Shown piece by piece: positions 2,578 to 43,156 of a stretch of DNA of 43,156 nucleotides. The translations under genes were made by a program, and so were the position numbers. Positions within the stretch are counted from its first letter, which is position 1; each line of letters opens with the position of its first letter. The notes under the pieces were generated by a model, which saw nothing but the letters and a program-made list of their open reading frames with translations, did no database searches and had not been told where the DNA came from. The stretch is from IMG/VR virus record IMGVR_UViG_2802429223_000002; one strand, 5' to 3'. This stretch comes from a virus (Duplodnaviria > Heunggongvirae > Uroviricota > Caudoviricetes).

Positions 2578-3447
<870 letters not shown>

Positions 3448-3468
3448 GTCTTTAAGTGATAAGCATAA

Positions 3469-3512
3469 ACCGCAGCACGTCATGCATACGTCGTGTCTGC
3501 GGTTTTTCTTTT
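3469..3512. terminator. bidirectional rho-independent terminator between convergent GIY-YIG gene and tfa
   Basis: CCGCAG...CTGCGG stem with extended pairing, followed by TTTTTCTTTTTT on plus strand and an A/T run on the other side. Confidence 0.6.
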
Positions 3513-3516
3513 TTGC

Positions 3517-4101
3517 TTACACGGTGTCTGGTTCTTCTGGCCACTCAATATCAGGTGCAGTTGATGTATCAACACGGTTCAGCAACACCCGATACTTCTT
3601 CCAGGCTTCCAGCAACGAGGTTTCTTCCTCCGTTGCAATTTCCAGATCTGCAGCATCCTGAAGCGGCGCAATATGCTCACTGGCTACCTGCATCAGGTTG
3701 TTTTTTGTTTCTTCCGCCTCCCGGATCCGGAACAGTTTTTCTGCTTCCGTATCCTTCACCCAGGCTGTGCCGTTCCACTTCTGAAACTCCCCTTCCGGCG
3801 ATAACCAGGTAACATTTTCCGGTAACGGACCGAGTTCAGAAATAAATAACGCGTCGCCGGAAGCCACGTCATAAACCGTTTTACCCCGATGATCTTCAAC
3901 GAGATGCCACGATGACTCATCACTGTTGAAAACAGCCACGAAGCCAGCCGGAATATCTGGCGGTGCAATATCGGTACTGTTTGCAGGCAGACCTGTATGA
4001 GGTGGAATATATGCGTCACCTTCACCAATAAATTCATTAGTTCCGGCCAGCAGATTATAAATTTTTATGGTCCGTGGTTGTTCACTCATTCTGAATGCCA
4101 T
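3517..4101 (-). CDS. tfa: tail fiber assembly protein Tfa
   Basis: 194 aa, near-identical along its length to lambda Tfa as I recall it ([44 protein letters not shown]...). Confidence 0.95.
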
Positions 4102-7061
4102 TATGCAAGCCTCACAATGTAGTTAAATGCGATGTTTTTGACGGTGTTTTCCGCGTTACCAGCAGCGTTAACGGTGATGGTGTGTCCATGTGAGCCAATC
4201 GCAACAGAGTGCGTATGAGCACCAATACCGACAGTATGCGCGTGTGCACCTGCAGATGCTGCTGTGCCGGACAGTGAGTGGCTATGATTACCATCTGTAC
4301 TGGTATTAGCTAACCACCCCGTAGACATACCTACTGAGCCTTGTACCCCCCAGGTATTTTGACCTGAGCTTGTATAACCATATTGATAAGTATCTTTAAA
4401 AACACTGGGGTTAAATCGACGGCCATCTCTATGGCTGTGATTACCAGCTGCATTCGTGCTGCCACTTAAACTATGGGTATGCGCCCCGGTGTTATTCGTG
4501 GATTTAGTGCCGTAATCAAACGACGATGTGGTTTTCGTACCCAAATCCGTACTGGATGCGCTGGCGCTGTGGGTGTGCGATTTAATGCCGTCCTGTTCCT
4601 GAGACAATACGGCACGACCACTGGCGGGTTTGCCCTTAATCGTCCAGCCACGCATATCAGGGATCACGCCTGACGGATAAGCGGCTGCAAGTTTCGGGTA
4701 TGCAGATTTGTCAAAAGTCTGCCCCTGCATCAGGGCATAGCCAGACGGAACGGTATCTGATGGCCACGGGATTGGTGCGCCAGGCGGATAAAACTGCTCT
4801 GATGGCGTATAGAGTGAATAAACTGTACCGTCCGTTAACCCTTCCGGCTTATTAGCAGAATATGCTGGTGACGTATGAATCGTCACGCTGGCATTACTGG
4901 TATAATCCCATTGAATATTTACACCAGTCGCATAATTTCCGATTGCAACGTAAATATCGTAAGTATCACCAGATGTATTGACCCAGGCAAAATTTGTAAA
5001 CCCTGTCGATGTGCGCTGCCATAAAGCACCAGTAATCCCCTTCGGATTACCATTACCTGCACGTAAAACAAGTTCAGATATACCTGCCTGTTGAGGTGAC
5101 CCCACGTTAAATCCAGCGCCACCAATCAACGTAATTGAAACAACAGAACTCGCCTGTGGCATGGTTACCGTTGCTAATTTGAACCAACCAGCACCACCGC
5201 TGAATGACATTGTTGTTGAGTTAAGCGTACCAATATCTTTCGGCGTCAGTGTTATATCCGCTGAAAGCGCCTTACCATTCACCTTACGGGCAGAAGGTAC
5301 CCGACCATTCGCATTGTCATTAGCTGCTTTCACTGCTTTCGGTGTCGCAGCAAGCGTTTCAGATGTGCTGTTGGTTGCACTACTGAGCTGGACAATTCCT
5401 TTTTGTGCTGTCGTAGCGTCCTGTGCGGTGTATTTCCCGTTAGCCAGGTCATACGCGGCCTTAACGGCTTTTGGCGTTGCCGCCTGTGACTCGGAAGTGC
5501 TGTTAGTCGCACTGCTGAGCTGAACTATCCCTTTCTGTGCTGTCGTTGCATCCTGTGCGGTGTATTTCCCGTTAGCCAGGTCATACGCGGCCTTAACGGC
5601 TTTTGGCGTTGCCGCCTGTGACTCGGAAGTGCTGTTGGTCGCACTGCTGAGCTGTACTATCCCCTTTTTCGTCGTGCTCGCATCCTCAAGCGCCACGGCG
5701 GATGCAATATCCTCTGCCCGTTTTGCTGCTGTCTCGGCGCGCGTTGCCGCGGATTCCGCCGTACTTTTGCTCTGTGCTGCCGCTGCCGCACTGCCAGCAG
5801 CCTCTGTCGCCTTCGTGGATGCCGTCGTGGCGCTGCCCCTCGCTGCTGACGCCTGTCTGGTCGCCTCATCTTTTGAAGCAGACGCAGATGATGCCGATGA
5901 CGCCGCCGAACTGGCGGACGATGCGGCAGCCGTTTTTGAGGATTCTGCGCTGGTTTCCGACGCTTTCGCGTTCGTTTCGGATGTCTTCGCTGCGGAAGCA
6001 GACCTCGCTGCTGCGCTGGCCTGTTCAGTGGCTTCGCCAGCCTTCGTTGTGGCTGTTGAAGCGGATGATGCGGCGCTTTCTGCCGATTTTCCGGCGGCGG
6101 TGGCACTGACTGCTGCCTCCTCTGCCTTAATGGACGCCTCACGGGCCGATGATGCAGCTGCTGTCTCAGAGTCTGCCGCAGCTGAGGCGCTCTGTTCCGC
6201 TGCCGTTTCAGAAGACCTGGCATTCGTCTCGGACGTTTTTGCCGCCTTCACGGAATTTCCTGCCGCCGTTGCCGAGGAGGCTGCACTGCTGGCGCTTGTG
6301 GAGGCGTTCGTTTCTGATGATTTTGCCGCCTCTTTGGAGGCCGCCGCATCTCTGGCTGAAGTGGCGGCTTCTGACGCTTTCGTCGTCGCAGTGGATGCAG
6401 AAGTGGCTGCTGATTTTTGTGACGCTGCAGCATTCGTTTCTGACGTTTTCGCCGCACCGGCACTGGTGGCCGCCGCGCTTTTTGAGGACTCTGCAGCGGC
6501 AGCACTTTTTGATGCTTCAGTGGCCTTTGTTGATGCCGTTCCTGCGCTGGAAGACGCCTCCTGAGCCGAAGTCGCGGCCTGTCCGGCTGACGTGCTGGCT
6601 GCACGCGCTGAGCCTGCAGCATCAGTCGCATGGGTTGCCGCCTCACGGGCAGATGTGCCGGCATCACTGGCTGACTTCTTCGCGGCTGCCGTGTTCTGTG
6701 CCACCGCGGACGCGTTACGCGTCACCTCTTCCACCATCAGTTCAAAACGGCGCAGAGCCTCCGGACGGGCATCATCCTCCGTCATGGCACCGAGAAAATC
6801 ATTCAGCGTACCGGGTCGGGAATCTTCATACACGGTGATGGTCCCGGCATGTGACGGCGGGAATCCTTCCACCAACAGAATAACGCTGTACTGACCGTAC
6901 TCAACGTCCATGCTGTAACGCCCGGCTTCATCCGGATTTTCTGAGGCCAGCGTGTTCACCACCACCGTGGTGCTGTTACGTTTTGCTTTCAGCTGGATTG
7001 TGCAGTTCTGTACCGGTTTTCCTGTGCCGTCTTTCAGTACACCTGAAATCTTTACTGCCAT
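4101..7061 (-). CDS. stf: side tail fiber protein Stf with expanded internal repeats
   Basis: N-terminus [32 protein letters not shown] matches lambda Stf; long Ala/Ser-rich region; ATG 7059-7061 preferred over GTG 7067. Confidence 0.9.
5275..5670. repeat. three tandem ~132-bp repeats inside stf (two near-perfect, one degenerate)
   Basis: DNA repeat visible by eye; encodes [44 protein letters not shown] three times. Confidence 0.85.
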
Positions 7062-27699: not shown

Positions 27700-28193
27700 T
27701 GCTGCCCCCACAAACAGACTTCACGCTCAATCTCACGACGAGTCATCAGTCCTTTCCATTGCTTACCTCCAGCGTATGTCCAGCGACGTAGCTGATCACA
27801 TGCGCCTTTGATATCGCCATGGTTTATTTTGCGAAGAAGCGTCGATGTTCTGAAATTGCCAGCACCCACGTTGTAGACGAACGAGTAAAGAGCGCCGCGC
27901 GTTGTTTCCGGTATATCGACTTTGATGTACGGGTTAATTTGTCTGGCGACCGTGGCAAGGTCTTTATTCAGGAGGGCTTTGCATTCTGCTTCGGTATACG
28001 TTTTACCGAGCATGATGTCTTTTCCGGTGTGTCCGTGGCATACAGTCCATACACCAACAATATCTTTGTATGGTATGTAGCTGACACCTTCCAGACCATC
28101 GTTACCACTTGGGCCAGTGATTAACACTGATGCTATAGCAATTGCTCCGCCACCAATAGCAGCAGCAACTGCTTTTCGTAATGATGGAGGCAT
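27696..28193 (-). CDS. R: SAR endolysin (phage 21 R-type lysozyme)
   Basis: N-terminal signal-anchor-release segment [20 protein letters not shown] followed by lysozyme domain; matches phage 21 R as recalled. Confidence 0.9.
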
Positions 28194-28408
28194 TATTCAC
28201 CTCTCGCAGCCTTGCGCTTATCTTCTTTAATCTTGAAATAAAGGTTTGTCAGATACGTCAGCAAGCCAAATACCAGACTACCCAGCACACCTATTGCCGC
28301 CCACTGTGAGGGCGTGACTTTATCGAGCAACTGTAAAAACCAGTACCCGGCACTACCTGCTGAGGTGCCATAGGCGACACCCGTTGTTAACTTATCCATG
28401 GATTTCAT
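28193..28408 (-). CDS. S: pinholin S (phage 21 S-type) with dual-start motif
   Basis: [71 protein letters not shown]; two in-frame Met (M1, M4); GAGGTGGAG SD. Confidence 0.9.
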
Positions 28409-28446
28409 AACTCCACCTCGCAGATGCGGGTGCAAATTGAGAGAAT

Positions 28447-28478
28447 AAAAAATCCCCGACAATTCCAGATGTCAGCGG
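28447..28478 (-). terminator. possible tR'-like hairpin and U-tract just upstream of S
   Basis: Minus-strand CTGACA...TGTCGG imperfect stem followed by GGATTTTTTATT. Confidence 0.3.
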
Positions 28479-28675
28479 CCTTAAATATAAAAACAGGCAA
28501 ATGCCGAGGTCCGCTAATCGTTGCCACTATGAGCGCTGCGACGCCATTTCATCCAGCCAAGCTATCAGATACGGAAGCCGTGCTGCCGCTTTTACGGCAT
28601 TGTATTCACTATACTTATCTATTCTGATATCGTTAAATCAACAGAAATAACCAATATCAGAAGGAACGCATTAAT

Positions 28676-29224
28676 ATGGCGAACAATCTTTTTTATACAC
28701 TTGACAGGCAGCGCACACTGAAGTCAGGCATGAAAATTGAATTAGCAGAACCGTACTGCCCAATCGTTCCACTTCAGGCTCATACGAGCTCATTGTTTTC
28801 CGACGGTGTATCCCGGCATGCAAATAATCTTTTTTTCAACTACCACATAAACCTCGTCAGCTCAGACGAACGATTTGGAGCAATAATAGAAATACTACTG
28901 GAAGAACGAAGGAAATCACACTTCCCTGAAAAACCATCGCGCTTCCAATCAATTTTTGCATGTGAGTCTGTAAAAGAAACCGCCTGGTTCAGAGGCTTTT
29001 CAAAATCCCCACTTGACACCCCAATATTTCAAGTCAGCTCATCGTCGAACTATCATAGAGGTGATATGAATTTGTTAAATCTGAACTGCTCCCCAGTAGA
29101 AGTATCTCAGAGGCTGGATCTTTACTGGAAGGGTGAAACAACACAGATTTACGAAGGGTATCAACCATTCTGGGAAGTGCTCATTCCATTGCCAGTTATT
29201 ATTGGTGAAAGAATTATCGAATAA
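28676..29224 (+). CDS. hypothetical protein (Q-S island gene 1)
   Basis: 182 aa, AGGAA SD before ATG; AT-rich; antisense to the late transcript; no family recognised. Confidence 0.55.
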   Translation: MANNLFYTLDRQRTLKSGMKIELAEPYCPIVPLQAHTSSLFSDGVSRHANNLFFNYHINLVSSDERFGAIIEILLEERRKSHFPEKPSRFQSIFACESVKETAWFRGFSKSPLDTPIFQVSSSSNYHRGDMNLLNLNCSPVEVSQRLDLYWKGETTQIYEGYQPFWEVLIPLPVIIGERIIE

Positions 29225-29519
29225 TGGCTCTGACACCAGAATCATTTCCATAGCCGAACTGACGCTGACAGATTTTTAATTCGCTTATGGCTTTCTCCAT
29301 TGCTAATAGCGCGTCTTCAGTACGGTAGCAATCAACCTCAAGAACAAACGTTTTGAGATTGCTACTATCATTCCCGGCGAAAAGCGCATAGCTGGGTTGA
29401 CCAGTCTGATTCATCCCCCCCCCCTCAAACGACGAAACCCGCTCGACGGCGGGTTTAAGCCACGTGACAAAGTAACCACTCTTAACACGATACAATAGTT
29501 TTTGCGTACGCGTTAGCAT
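29214..29519 (-). CDS. hypothetical protein containing a G10 homopolymer tract (Q-S island gene 2)
   Basis: 101 aa ORF; the run of 10 C on the plus strand (29415-29424) encodes E-G-G-G; reading frame depends on tract length. Confidence 0.4.
   Translation of the reverse strand: MLTRTQKLLYRVKSGYFVTWLKPAVERVSSFEGGGMNQTGQPSYALFAGNDSSNLKTFVLEVDCYRTEDALLAMEKAISELKICQRQFGYGNDSGVRAIIR
29415..29424. repeat. C10/G10 homopolymer tract
   Basis: Ten consecutive C at 29415-29424 inside ORF 29214-29519. Confidence 0.95.
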
Positions 29520-29567
29520 TTTTGTTAAAGTATAAAAATGTAATTAAACCAGTATGTCATCACTACA

Positions 29568-30452
29568 ATGAAATGCATCCGAAAACATCCAGCAATAGCT
29601 TATACAGTAATTATTTTAGTTTTTGCCTTAATATACAATTTCACTTGGAGCGTCAATCCAGATTCTTTCATTAAAAACAACGTTCTCAACTCTACACCTG
29701 TATATGATGCCGTTAATTTAGCATATGCGAACAATGAGGTAAAAAAAGAAGCTCCTGTCAGTGTTTCGAGGGAAGTATTTGCAGAGCAAATTTTAACACT
29801 TACAAATCAATTCAATAAGATAATAATTGAAAACTTAGAACTTGAAAAAACATTATCTCAGCAGCAAGAAAAATTAAAACAAATTAGTGAAAGACAATCA
29901 ATAAAGTGGGGCGAAAACACCAAAAAATACATAGCAGACAGTTTGAAAGATTTACACAAAACGCTTATCACTAAAAATAGTGAACGTACTGCCATAGCAT
30001 CTTTAAAAAACAAAACAAATGAAAGTCAGATTAACATTATGCTGGCCGACAAAGATGAAGAAATAGCCAAAATAAACCTTGAAATAGCGTATAAAGAGAA
30101 TGATGCTAATGTCTATATCTTATCTCATGTCGGCGACTTTAACGATCCAATAATCGTTAATGAGCTTGACGCAATCAATAAAGAAATTGAGAAAACAAGA
30201 ACAAAAATAATAAACAATAAAAAGAAAATAATGGAGATAAGGAGTAAATCTCAATCTATGCTGGAGAAACTCAAAAAAGATGACCTTAACTTTTGGGATT
30301 TCTTATTTTATAGCATAGGAATATCTACAACGACCACCTTTGGTGATTTGTTAGCAAATTCAAGACTTATCAGACTGATAGTTTGCGTGCAACTTTTACT
30401 ATCAATTATAGTTTTAGCTAACGTAACTCAAAGATTTTTATCAAAAAAATAA
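29568..30452 (+). CDS. membrane protein: N-terminal TM helix, long coiled-coil, C-terminal pore-loop-like motif (Q-S island gene 3)
   Basis: 294 aa; TM segment AIAYTVIILVFALIYNFTW; Lys/Glu-rich heptad region; C-terminus FLFYSIGISTTTTFGDL then hydrophobic helix RLIVCVQLLLSIIVLANV; very AT-rich. Confidence 0.55.
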   Translation: MKCIRKHPAIAYTVIILVFALIYNFTWSVNPDSFIKNNVLNSTPVYDAVNLAYANNEVKKEAPVSVSREVFAEQILTLTNQFNKIIIENLELEKTLSQQQEKLKQISERQSIKWGENTKKYIADSLKDLHKTLITKNSERTAIASLKNKTNESQINIMLADKDEEIAKINLEIAYKENDANVYILSHVGDFNDPIIVNELDAINKEIEKTRTKIINNKKKIMEIRSKSQSMLEKLKKDDLNFWDFLFYSIGISTTTTFGDLLANSRLIRLIVCVQLLLSIIVLANVTQRFLSKK

Positions 30453-30460
30453 AAAACAAA

Positions 30461-30478
30461 GCCCTCAAAAATGAGGGC
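30461..30478. terminator. bidirectional terminator between island gene 3 and Q
   Basis: GCCCTCA / TGAGGGC 7-bp stem with AAAA loop, flanked by an A-run upstream and TAATTT downstream. Confidence 0.6.
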
Positions 30479-30489
30479 TAATTTAAACC

Positions 30490-30834
30490 TTAAGATAAGA
30501 ACGATAAAATCCCGTCCAAAAATCCTAGTGCAGTTTGCAATTCCTTTCTAATCGTGCCATCTGAACACCTTCTCTTCTTGGCAATAGTGCGTAATGAGAT
30601 ACCAATAACAAAGTGGGCAATTAGTAGCTCATATTCTTCTGGCTTATATTTACGCAACCTCGCCACACATCCATCAATCATAAGACCTTCATCATCATCA
30701 CACTGCATCCGGGACTTTTTGCCATGAGGTAAAAGCCCCTTGAAGCCTGCTGCTATCGGCTGCCAATCCACACTACTGTTATCTGCTGCAGCCCATGCTC
30801 CCCAGCGGTCCAAAACTTCATACATGTCACGCAT
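30490..30834 (-). CDS. late-gene antiterminator Q (QuuD / phage 82-type family)
   Basis: [35 protein letters not shown]...[20 protein letters not shown] resembles E. coli QuuD as recalled ([35 protein letters not shown]...); lies upstream of the lysis cassette. Confidence 0.85.
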   Translation of the reverse strand: [114 protein letters not shown]

Positions 30835-30851
30835 CAACTTTCTCCACAAAA

Positions 30852-31847
30852 TCAGGCCAGCACGCCAATTGCCAGCGCACGATCGATAAAACGAAATATC
30901 AACTCCAGCTGGGAGCCATACTTCTCTTCAAATGCCACGGTATCCGCATGCAGCTCGTCGTGATGCTTTCTGCACAAAGGCAACACAAAGAGGTCATGTG
31001 CTTTTGTACCCATTCCACCCTGACCGTGGCCTATCAGGTGGTGGGGATCATCAGCAGGCTTTCCACAACATGCACACGGCTGAGTCTTAACCCAGCGCGT
31101 GTACTTTTCATTAACCCAACGGCGACGTTTGGGGCGTAACATAAAAGACTCCGGCGACTCCGGATCCACTTCCAGCGACAGCACATTTTTCGCTTTATCC
31201 TGGATGATGCTGGTGGCAGGAACCGAAGGAACAAGGTCACTTTCCCGGGTGACAGACGGCACAACAGGCTTCGGTAATCTCAGTGCCTTACGGGCTGCAC
31301 TTTCCGGTAAGGCATCCGCCAGATCATTACGAATCAGCCACCAGCACAGTTCCGGCATTGTCACAACGTGACTATCATCAAAACCGAGAGCCCGACGCAC
31401 AACAGACAACACCCAGCGGGCACAGTTATCCGTTGCCATTGATTCCAGCCGTTCCGTGAACTGATCGCGCAGTTGGTTATCGCAGTGCCAGCACAGACGG
31501 ATTGCGCCAGGCGCGTGTCGCATTGTGGTCATGTTCTCGCTGTGCCAGTTGGAATGAGGCCACTGGCAGCCTTTTTCACGAAGTAACCAGCTTTCAAGAC
31601 ATTCCACGCCACCAGCACGACGGATCACTGCCTCATTGCGGAACACGGCCCGAACGGCAGGATCATCCGCAAGCGGTTGTGACGCCGCGGGAACGGCACC
31701 ACTGGCGAAAGATGAATAATGCTCCGGCTCAGGCTCCAGCAGGACACGCCCCTGCATAAACAGGGGCATCAGCTCTGAACCGGGCCTGAACAATACGATC
31801 CCCATACGCGGGGCAATTTCAGGGGTCAGTAGTGCTCTCACGGTCAC
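30852..31847 (-). CDS. DUF968-like phage protein with C-terminal HNH-like zinc-ribbon motif
   Basis: 331 aa; C-terminal CACCGKPADDPHHLIGHGQGGMGTKAHDLFVLPLCRKHHDELH; position between nin-region genes and Q. Confidence 0.55.
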   Translation of the reverse strand: MTVRALLTPEIAPRMGIVLFRPGSELMPLFMQGRVLLEPEPEHYSSFASGAVPAASQPLADDPAVRAVFRNEAVIRRAGGVECLESWLLREKGCQWPHSNWHSENMTTMRHAPGAIRLCWHCDNQLRDQFTERLESMATDNCARWVLSVVRRALGFDDSHVVTMPELCWWLIRNDLADALPESAARKALRLPKPVVPSVTRESDLVPSVPATSIIQDKAKNVLSLEVDPESPESFMLRPKRRRWVNEKYTRWVKTQPCACCGKPADDPHHLIGHGQGGMGTKAHDLFVLPLCRKHHDELHADTVAFEEKYGSQLELIFRFIDRALAIGVLA

Positions 31848-40307: not shown

Positions 40308-40657
40308 TGGAGCCATACAGCCTCACACTCGATGAGGCCTGTCATTTTCTCAAGATATCCAGACCGACTGCCATTAACTGGATACGCACAGGGCGTCTTC
40401 AGGCAACACGCAAAGATCCCACTAAGAATAAATCTCCTTACCTCACTACACGACAAGCCTGCATTGCGGCTCTTCAGTCTCCGCTGCATACTGTCCAGGT
40501 GAGCGCGGGTGATGGCATAACAGAGGAAAGAAAATGTCACTCTTCCGCAGAGGTGAAATATGGTACGCCAGTTTCACATTGCCGAACGGTAAAAGATTTA
40601 AACAGTCTCTTGGAACAAAGGACAAAAGGCAGGCGACAGAACTCCATGACAAGCTAA
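40307..40657 (+). CDS. xis: excisionase-like HTH protein (AlpA/Xis family)
   Basis: N-terminal [26 protein letters not shown]; TAATG overlap with upstream gene; ORF runs 124 nt into the int reading frame. Confidence 0.55.
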
Positions 40658-41697
40658 AGGCTGAAGCATGGCGGGTCAGCAAACTTGGTGAAATACCTGA
40701 TATAACATTCGAGGAAGCGTGTGTCAGGTGGCTTGAAGAGAAAGCACATAAAAAATCACTGGACGATGACAAAAGCCGGATCGGATTCTGGCTTCAACAT
40801 TTCGCAGGAATGCAACTAAGAGACATTACTGAATCAAAAATTTATTCAGCAATGCAGAAAATGACGAACCGGCGTCATGAGGAAAACTGGAAACTCAGGG
40901 CAGAAGCATGCAGAAAAAAAGGGAAACCTGTTCCAGAATACACGCCAAAACCAGCGTCCGTTGCAACGAAGGCTACGCATCTTTCATTTATAAAGGCCCT
41001 ACTAAGAGCCGCAGAGCGTGAATGGAAAATGCTGGATAAGGCACCAATTATTAAAGTGCCTCAACCAAAGAATAAACGGATCCGCTGGCTGGAGCCCCAT
41101 GAAGCACAAAGGCTGATTGATGAATGTCCGGAGCCATTAAAGTCTGTTGTTGAATTTGCACTGGCAACAGGCTTAAGACGCTCGAACATCATCAACCTTG
41201 AATGGCAACAAATAGATATGCAGCGCCGGGTGGCATGGATAAACCCGGAAGAGAGTAAATCAAACCGCGCAATTGGCGTTGCGCTGAATGATACTGCATG
41301 TCGCGTATTGAAAAAACAAATCGGGAATCATCACCGTTGGGTATTTGTGTACAAGGAAAGCTGTACCAAACCAGACGGAACGAAAGCGCCAACAGTAAGG
41401 AAGATGCGGTATGACGCAAACACAGCCTGGAAAGCGGCGCTGAGACGGGCTGGTATTGATGATTTCAGATTTCACGACTTGAGACACACCTGGGCAAGTT
41501 GGCTGGTTCAAGCCGGAGTCCCGTTGTCAGTGTTACAGGAAATGGGAGGCTGGGAGTCTATCGAAATGGTTCGTCGATATGCTCACCTTGCACCTAATCA
41601 CCTTACCGAACACGCACGGCAAATAGACTCGATCCTGAACCCATCGGTCCCAAATTTGTCCCAGTCAAAAAATAAGGAAGGTACTAATGATGTGTAA
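40534..41697 (+). CDS. int: tyrosine integrase (P4-type, tRNA-targeting)
   Basis: [15 protein letters not shown]-terminus typical of P4-like integrases; C-terminal catalytic region [15 protein letters not shown]...VRRYAHL; ends 15 nt from the tRNA 3' end. Confidence 0.9.
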
Positions 41698-41711: not shown

Positions 41712-41787
41712 TGGTGCCGATAATAGGAGTCGAACCTACGACCTTCGCATTACGAATGCGCTGCTCTACCAACTGAGCTATATCGGC
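41712..41787 (-). tRNA. thrW: tRNA-Thr (anticodon CGU)
   Basis: Reverse complement reads GCCGATATAGCTCAGTTGGTAGAGCAGCGCATTCGTAATGCGAAGGTCGTAGGTTCGACTCCTATTATCGGCACCA: cloverleaf with CGT anticodon and 3' CCA; matches E. coli thrW as recalled. Confidence 0.95.
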
Positions 41788-41902: not shown

Positions 41903-43156
41903 TTACGCACGAACGGTGTAATCACCAATACCGATCCACTTGTAGGTGGTCAGCGCTTCCAGCCCCATTGGTCCGCGTGCGTGGAGTTTTTGCGTGCTTA
42001 CCGCCACTTCTGCGCCAAGACCAAACTGGCCGCCGTCGGTGAAACGTGTAGACGCGTTAACGTAAACAGCAGAGGAGTCCACTTCATTGACAAAACGCTG
42101 GGCATTGCGCATATCACGCGTCAGGATCGCATCGGAGTGTTGCGTCCCGTGTTCACGAATATGGGCGATGGCGTCGTCAAGATCGCTGACGATTTTGACG
42201 TTCAAATCTAACGACAGGAATTCATCGTCATACTCTTCCGCCTTAACAGCCACCACTTTCGCAGATCCTGCCTGCAACTGCGCCAGTGCCGCAGCATCGG
42301 CGTGTAACGTCACGCCGCTTTCCGCCATTTGCTTGCTTAACGCAGGCAGGAAGTTATCAGCGATGTTTTTATTCACCAGCAACGTTTCTACCGTATTGCA
42401 GGTACTCGGACGCTGGGTTTTCGCGTTGACGATCACTTTCAGGGCTGCAGAAATGTCAGCACTTTCATCAACGTAAATATGGCAGACGCCAATGCCGCCA
42501 GTGATCACCGGAATTGTCGACTGCTCGCGGCACAGCTTATGCAAACCAGCACCACCACGCGGGATCAGCATGTCGATGTATTTATCCATGCGCAGCATTT
42601 CACTCACCAGCGCGCGATCCGGATTATCAATCGCCTGCACTGCGCCTGCCGGTAAACCGCAGGATTTCAGGGCGTCCTGAATCACCGCTACCGTTGCAGC
42701 GTTAGTGCGACAGGTTTCTTTGCCGCCGCGCAGGATCACCGCGTTACCGGTTTTCAGACACAGCGAAGCGACATCAACTGTCACGTTCGGACGCGCTTCA
42801 TAAATTACACCTATAACACCCAGCGGCACGCGGCGACGCTCCAGACGCAGGCCGCTGTCCAGCACACCTCCATCAATCACCTGCCCTACCGGATCGGCAA
42901 GATTACACACCTGCCGCACATCGTCGGCAATGCCTTTCAGGCGCGCGGGCGTTAACGCCAGACGGTCAAGCATCGCTTCGCTAAGGCCATTGGCACGCGC
43001 GTCAGCAACATCCTGGGCGTTAGCATCGAGGATGCTTTCGCTCTGTGCTTCCAGCTCATCAGCGATCTTTTCCAGCACGCGATTTTTTTCGCGGCTGGAG
43101 AGTTGCGCTAATTTATACGAGGCTTGCTTCGCAGCAATGCCCATTTGTTCCAGCAT
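41903..43156 (-). CDS. proA: gamma-glutamyl phosphate reductase
   Basis: 417 aa, full length; starts [40 protein letters not shown], matching E. coli ProA as recalled; host gene flanking the prophage. Confidence 0.95.

Follow-up and report, generated by a model that had tools for sequence, protein, structure and literature searches.

A run of ten C at positions 29415-29424, which reads as ten G on the minus strand, is best interpreted as a length-unstable poly-G tract that serves as the ribosome-binding site of a gene for a 66-aa protein, tuning its translation at most and not switching it ON or OFF. We assign this joint reading a probability of about 0.6, and much of the length variation may be nearly neutral. 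The run lies in the late region of a prophage that is contained in the window, i.e., the whole stretch of DNA that was analyzed (43,156 bp). The features in the immediate surroundings of the tract are the following.

29415..29424, minus strand: C10 homopolymer (G10 as read on the coding strand), immediately before the ATG of the 66-aa gene
29214..29414, minus strand: gene for the 66-aa protein, phrog_10826 (ATG 29414-29412, stop 29216-29214)
29214..29519, minus strand: mechanical 101-aa ORF (...SSFEGGGMNQ...), with its N-terminal 35 codons at 29415-29519
29425..29527, minus strand: conserved noncoding late-leader element, common to 190 E. coli prophages and 356 phage records
29435..29456, minus strand: intrinsic-terminator hairpin AAACCCGC-CGUCGA-GCGGGUUU, with a fold of -15.7 kcal/mol
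29434-29425, minus strand: U-rich tail CGUCGUUUGA, directly after the terminator hairpin
28676..29224, plus strand: gene for a DUF2441 protein of 182 aa (PF10386, E = 6e-6; phrog_5663, E = 2e-58)

The ten consecutive C described in the earlier note on this DNA are confirmed, and they form the sole homopolymer of at least nine bases in the window; elsewhere, C runs do not exceed six bases and G runs do not exceed five. A number of 0.07 C10/G10 runs per window is expected from dinucleotide-preserving shuffles (5 out of 100 contain one), and about 0.09 from a zero-order model. The run is uncommon, yet on frequency alone it is compatible with chance. We nonetheless count the tract as real because the same tract recurs in every related locus: the G run is uninterrupted in 32 out of 32 loci, on three haplotypes.

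The window corresponds to a lambdoid prophage whose late genes are encoded on the minus strand. Its landmarks outside the immediate surroundings of the tract are listed below.

30490..30849, minus strand: antiterminator Q of the phage-21 family (PF06530, E = 2.6e-45; phrog_79), 114 aa as called in related contigs
29568..30452, plus strand: 294-aa cargo with a C-terminal Ion_trans_2-like region, reverse-oriented between Q and the late leader
28193..28408, minus strand: phage-21-type holin (PF04971, E = 3.8e-35), 71 aa as called in relatives
40534-41697: integrase-sized ORF
41712-41787: tRNA-Thr(CGU), thrW, the prophage attachment site
41903-43156: proA, adjoining thrW

The integrase-sized ORF, the tRNA-Thr(CGU) gene and proA place the prophage at the thrW attachment site, which we take to be the integration site of SfII-type Shigella serotype-converting phages. 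The ProA product exactly matches Escherichia marmotae entries, and the prophage is accordingly read as one of this species. Along the minus strand, the order is Q, the reverse cargo, a noncoding element of about 100 bp, G10, the ATG at 29414, DUF2441, the holin and a lysozyme, with the holin being the next late gene downstream of the cassette formed by the 66-aa gene and DUF2441. A Q antiterminator gene is present upstream of the late leader, as in lambdoid Q-dependent late cassettes. The slot between Q and the late leader (29528-30489 in the window) contains reverse-oriented cargo that differs by lineage. In the compared loci, it spans 2656-4270 (L001), 2656-5025 (L002) and 782-1345 (L023), or starts at 587 (L047) and at 574 (L050, where the gene is cut at the locus end). 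Elsewhere, the slot comprises a 187-aa protein, two hypotheticals (SfII), a nucleoid-associated protein with a hypothetical, a 3.1-kb metallophosphoesterase or a porin (434, L024), and it looks like a moron or defense hotspot. The 294-aa, 187-aa, DUF2441 and 66-aa proteins yield no matches in PADLOC and none among the NCBIfam models, and a search with Rfam over 28300-30900 gives no credible match.

The leader in front of the tract is conserved far beyond the cassette. Complete E. coli genomes share with the region nothing but segment 29527-29413, which megablast finds there in 190 prophages; it is also present in SfII and Stx phages and is unannotated in every megablast match listed. With a more sensitive search, the element turns up in 356 phage records, among them 434 as well as numerous Stx1 and Stx2 phages. 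Among the matches listed in this search it is mostly unannotated, with a few records putting a hypothetical protein or a Q CDS over it. In phage 434, the element is flanked by a reverse-oriented porin and the S21-type holin, and the careful annotation of this phage leaves it unlabelled. Conservation of the terminator hairpin extends to SfII, E. coli prophages, Stx phages and 434, the 434 version having a T5...T6 tail, and the diverged homologues L037, L040 and L041 carry terminators of other sequence in the same place. In L042 and L046, the Q stop codon is immediately followed by a homologous element. Published Q cassettes consist of the Q gene, pR', a sigma-dependent pause element, a terminator and the late genes (10.1101/651190), a layout that the leader region matches in its Q gene, terminator and late genes. 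An intrinsic terminator before the first late gene, a feature of Q-dependent late cassettes, is present. A consensus scan of the window-type leader revealed no late promoter hexamers. The window leader is read as pR' and as Q-dependent because of its position and synteny, and the element is presumed to be a Q-dependent promoter-proximal region with its terminator. In L041, positions 1572-1683 comprise a near-consensus promoter (TTGACA-18-CATAAT) that overlaps the end of Q, then a terminator (1641-1661), a GGAGG Shine-Dalgarno (SD) sequence and then the homologue of the 66-aa gene, which is the first late ORF there; MptE-like and methyltransferase genes replace DUF2441 in this locus.

Downstream of the tract, the conserved coding sequence is that of the 66-aa protein. 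Residues 36-101 of the 101-aa ORF align to positions 1-66 of the phrog_10826 profile (68 positions; E = 9e-40), and the 66-aa protein gives a full-length match. Homologues at 85-92% identity count 66 aa and begin with MNQ, while full-length homologues mostly count 65-71 aa and begin at the ATG that abuts the tract. An exhaustive profile search delineates a small unannotated family with 15 representatives at E <= 0.001, of which the distant full-length ones (E <= 1e-13) range from 66 to 71 aa, their alignments starting at profile position 1 or 2. The pN/pS ratio of the 66-aa gene is 0.10-0.28 (six loci), with the differences concentrated at third codon positions. Judging from this pattern of conservation, the 66-aa gene is a real gene under purifying selection. 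Its AlphaFold2 model (pLDDT 71) shows a beta-beta-alpha-beta arrangement, for which Foldseek found no significant match in the PDB (best E = 0.11, TM < 0.5); a sequence search of the PDB returned a marginal poxvirus match only. Searching the phage collection with the 66-aa protein (tblastn) and 5,426 complete RefSeq E. coli genomes with the cassette (megablast) gave no match, and a scan of genome contigs for an exact 20-mer from the ORF start retrieved unrelated Acinetobacter loci only. The cassette proteins are labelled E. coli in many draft assemblies, and also E. marmotae, E. albertii and E. whittamii; cryptic-clade Escherichia may be the main carriers of the cassette. One 117-kb NCBI contig (P0012) encodes a 65-aa variant in which residues ~12-50 are read in another frame and both ends match the family. 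Its middle looks like the result of two compensating frameshifts; either the copy has decayed or its sequence contains errors.

What the run itself is can be read from the diverged homologues of the small gene. At the position of the tract, they carry an ordinary GGAGG or GAGG SD sequence at 4-5 nt from the ATG, and always 8-14 nt after the T-run of the terminator. The sites read as follows.

L037 (Serratia fonticola), SD site: GTGAGGcagctATG
L039, SD site: CTGGAGGgggtATG
L040, SD site: ATGGAGGcggtATG
L041, SD site: CTGGAGGtgtctATG
L042, SD site: CTGGAGGggctATG

In the Escherichia cassette lineage, the same stretch reads GA-G(n)-ATG. Because the diverged homologues carry a normal SD sequence here, the run is interpreted as the SD sequence (GAGG) plus the spacer of the 66-aa gene. 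E. coli and SfII phages without the small gene read CTGGGGCTGGGGAT at this place, which is also 10 nt long, but interrupted. Homologous genes that lack the tract thus exist among the diverged relatives, but the Escherichia cassette lineage keeps the run.

The earlier note also regarded the run as a site of slipped-strand mispairing, and this part of its proposal is supported, at least in that the run is length-unstable, as the length differs among relatives on flanks that are identical over 860 bp and within the window's own haplotype. Across related strains the tract is not uniform: G8, G9, G10 and G11 are read in DNA, as taken from public assemblies, in which homopolymer lengths can be wrong. 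Further lengths are deduced from protein calls only: ...FEGG-M points to G7, ...FEGGGG-M to G13, and GGGG-M at the start of a contig to at least 12 G. Among 14 loci that were sampled regardless of length (by look-up of the 66-aa product and by two-flank pattern scans), G8 occurs once, G9 seven times, G10 four times and G11 twice. The modal length therefore looks to be G9 and not the G10 of the window. With the tract masked, four out of five multi-member haplotypes that are identical over the 860-bp flank carry two or three lengths, a count limited to haplotypes that were not selected through a G10-only product. At least five length changes are set against zero substitutions on these flanks. 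The window's own background of about 2 kb, with the ion-channel cargo, comprises G8 (L052), G9 (L035) and G10 (L034), and length polymorphism is seen on three haplotypes. In E. coli, indels become exponentially more frequent as runs lengthen, and G:C runs stand out as outliers already at 8 bp (PMC8510543). The observed variation fits replication slippage, and the sequences support the tract as a length-hypermutable repeat.

Homopolymers are error-prone, and the spread from G7 to G13 could in principle consist of miscalls around one true length. The suspicion of a sequencing or assembly hotspot, likewise raised in the earlier note, is justified to the extent that an NCBI draft contig (P0018) starts inside the run, while another contig (P0020) starts four codons after the ATG. 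Non-modal lengths nevertheless recur in independent samples (G11 in four, G8 in two), and finished chromosomes carry different lengths: G10 in CP057559.1 and CP147739.1, G8 in CP057349.1, G9 in OZ040655.1 and G11 in OZ039590.1. Moreover, the 860-bp flank of the same assemblies contains no other indel. Assembly error as the source of the whole spread is unlikely on these grounds.

What a change in length would do to translation was explored with a rough, home-made and uncalibrated model that combines 16S pairing in register, a spacing penalty of the Salis type and the energy needed to unfold the ribosome footprint. It predicts a usable register at every length from G6 to G14, G9-G12 being best and G7-G8 being 4-8 kcal/mol worse. 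Effects of length on translation of the 66-aa gene would, according to this model, be graded (rheostat-like) at most. The following course of events can be proposed. The G run would have evolved from an ordinary GGAGG SD sequence. As the first ORF behind the late-leader terminator, the 66-aa gene would be represented in mRNA mainly when Q permits read-through. Slippage during replication would produce the G7-G13 alleles at a rate far above that of point substitutions. The 66-aa protein is the same in all of them; what would change is the distance of the GAGG core from the AUG, between 5 and 11 nt, and the extent to which the G residues can pair with the 16S tail or with the terminator stem through its CCCGCC arm.

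The 66-aa gene, which such tuning would affect, has a convergent partner. The 3' end of DUF2441 overlaps the 66-aa gene by 11 nt (4 nt in S. fonticola L037), and the convergent pair is kept in L037, L039, L040 and L042, i.e., in Serratia and other lambdoid backgrounds. In L027, DUF2441 is truncated to 52 aa. Pfam places DUF2441 in the ADP-ribosyltransferase (ART) clan (PMC7955679), and its only solved relative by sequence is the hypothetical protein 2aua (E = 8e-4). The two genes may constitute a toxin or defense pair; a role of the 66-aa protein as antidote or regulator of DUF2441 is speculation. Between the starts of DUF2441 and the holin, 267 bp (28409-28675) are devoid of a convincing ORF. 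This interval should hold the plus-strand promoter of DUF2441 and be crossed by minus-strand late transcription; a consensus promoter scan found no plus-strand promoter in it.

One possibility is that the run is an adaptive contingency locus, selected to vary the dose of the 66-aa protein as a possible regulator or antidote of the ART-fold DUF2441. The run sits in a translation signal, it is uninterrupted in all loci on three haplotypes, it precedes one member of a conserved convergent pair, and a poly-G tract in a 5'UTR has a precedent (PMC11898584). On the other hand, the diverged homologues manage with a plain SD sequence and no repeat, and the lineages that bear the tract are very closely related, such that its retention may reflect recent ancestry. 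Because all tract-bearing haplotypes are so close, the uninterrupted run is weak evidence for selection. In addition, no length is predicted to abolish initiation, neither protein of the pair matches defense-system models, and L041 carries the small gene without DUF2441. We consider a selected function of this kind unlikely, and its more specific form, in which a G7-G13 contingency locus sets the level of a 66-aa partner of an ADP-ribosyltransferase-fold DUF2441, less likely still. If it were true, sister lysogens would differ heritably and reversibly in the behavior of a putative toxin/defense pair on induction, and bet-hedging based on simple sequence repeats would occur in a genus in which it is regarded as essentially absent. 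To our knowledge, simple-sequence contingency loci are not an established regulatory strategy in Escherichia.

The run could also act at the level of RNA or transcription, either because a G:C-rich duplex just past the weak U-tract alters termination or because pairing between the G run and CCCGCC masks the ribosome-binding site. In the predicted minimum-energy folds of the read-through transcript, pairing of the G run with CCCGCC indeed replaces the terminator hairpin at G7 and longer, and the terminator tail of the window (UUUCGUCGUUU) is weaker than the T5-T6 tails of 434, L037, L040 and L041. Nonetheless, the leader folds are not significantly more stable than those of shuffles (z = -1.16 and -1.48), RNA polymerase reaches the run only past the decision point for termination, and the run is lineage-specific, so that there is no covariation to test. 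An action of this type is very unlikely. Two related candidates were rejected: an antiterminator role for the pairing of the G run with CCCGCC, as the run is transcribed after the termination point, and a G-quadruplex, as only one G run is present.

The earlier note had placed the tract inside the coding sequence of the 101-aa ORF, where the gain or loss of one base would truncate the protein or fuse it to another frame and thereby cause stochastic ON/OFF expression. The ORF does exist mechanically, but its conservation as a gene is confined to the 66 codons that follow the tract. Its first 35 codons are a frame artefact of the G10 allele. They are judged to be noncoding because they overlie the conserved leader and terminator without a conserved ATG; the ATG of the 101-aa ORF reads ACG or AAG in relatives. 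At G7, G10 and G13, an upstream frame starting with MLTRTQ... or MYRVKS... is open, at G8 and G11 one starting with MLRVV..., and at G9 and G12 a TGA directly precedes the run. Gene calls of 90, 91, 92, 93, 94, 101 and 102 aa arise because the tract length sets which of these spurious upstream frames is open. While the N-termini of the called 90-102-aa products do depend on tract length, the family profile and the full-length homologues begin after the tract, in the commonest allele (G9) a stop codon comes right before the run, the exact 66-aa product is far commoner than the 101-aa form (682 versus 31 index blocks), and the upstream part is a conserved noncoding leader with a terminator hairpin and no conserved start codon, which leaves a frameshift switch within the ORF largely refuted and the least credible of the explanations considered. 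A change of one base does not truncate or fuse the conserved protein, which starts at the ATG 3' of the tract, and the proposed ON/OFF expression is not borne out, the tract being the ribosome-binding region outside the coding sequence.

With the run read as the ribosome-binding site of the 66-aa gene, several consequences follow. If the alleles measurably change translation, the tract would be a clear natural example of a variable homopolymer that makes up SD sequence and spacer in Enterobacteriaceae, and it would offer a handle on a conserved phage pair, i.e., the 66-aa protein and the ART-clan DUF2441. If they are without effect, the tract would be a neutral mutational hotspot. The pair occupies the slot between Q and the lysis genes that holds stx in Shiga-toxin phages. 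Furthermore, the tract accounts for the inconsistent database calls (66, 90-94 and 101-102 aa) of one protein, and it is a place at which assemblies conflict or are broken.

Poly-G tracts in leaders are found in other bacteria. In Moraxella catarrhalis, G9 and G10 alleles of the poly(G) tract in the 5'UTR of uspA1 reportedly give graded expression. The prophage run shares with uspA1 the G9/G10 alleles in a transcribed leader, whereas the uspA1 effect is said to act at the mRNA level and its tract to lie about 30 nt from the start codon. In M. tuberculosis, indels in the poly-G tract of the espR 5'UTR alter leader folding and translation (PMC11898584). Here too, the poly-G is located in a leader and not in an ORF, the indels arise repeatedly and independently among isolates, and the proposed effect runs via leader folding and ribosome access. 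However, the espR tract is located 144 bp upstream of its gene and its effect was measured with reporters, whereas the prophage run abuts the AUG as SD sequence and spacer, its gene is a late-operon moron and its effect is predicted only. The in-ORF contingency loci of Neisseria and Haemophilus (PMC5084427, PMC2651432) are similar in having a G/C run of about 8-13 bases with steps of plus or minus one among isolates; they differ in that the prophage tract lies outside the conserved coding sequence, hence there is no frameshift switch. The surrounding architecture is that of the lambdoid Q late cassette (10.1101/651190), with a phage-21-family Q (PF06530), a conserved leader, an intrinsic terminator and lysis genes (S21-type holin, endolysin) after the terminator. 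In the prophage, by contrast, reverse-oriented cargo separates Q from the leader, no promoter or Q-binding element was found in the leader, and the cassette of the 66-aa gene and DUF2441 is inserted between terminator and holin. Within this architecture, the tract adds a new case to a known kind of element, the hypermutable homopolymer of a 5' leader.
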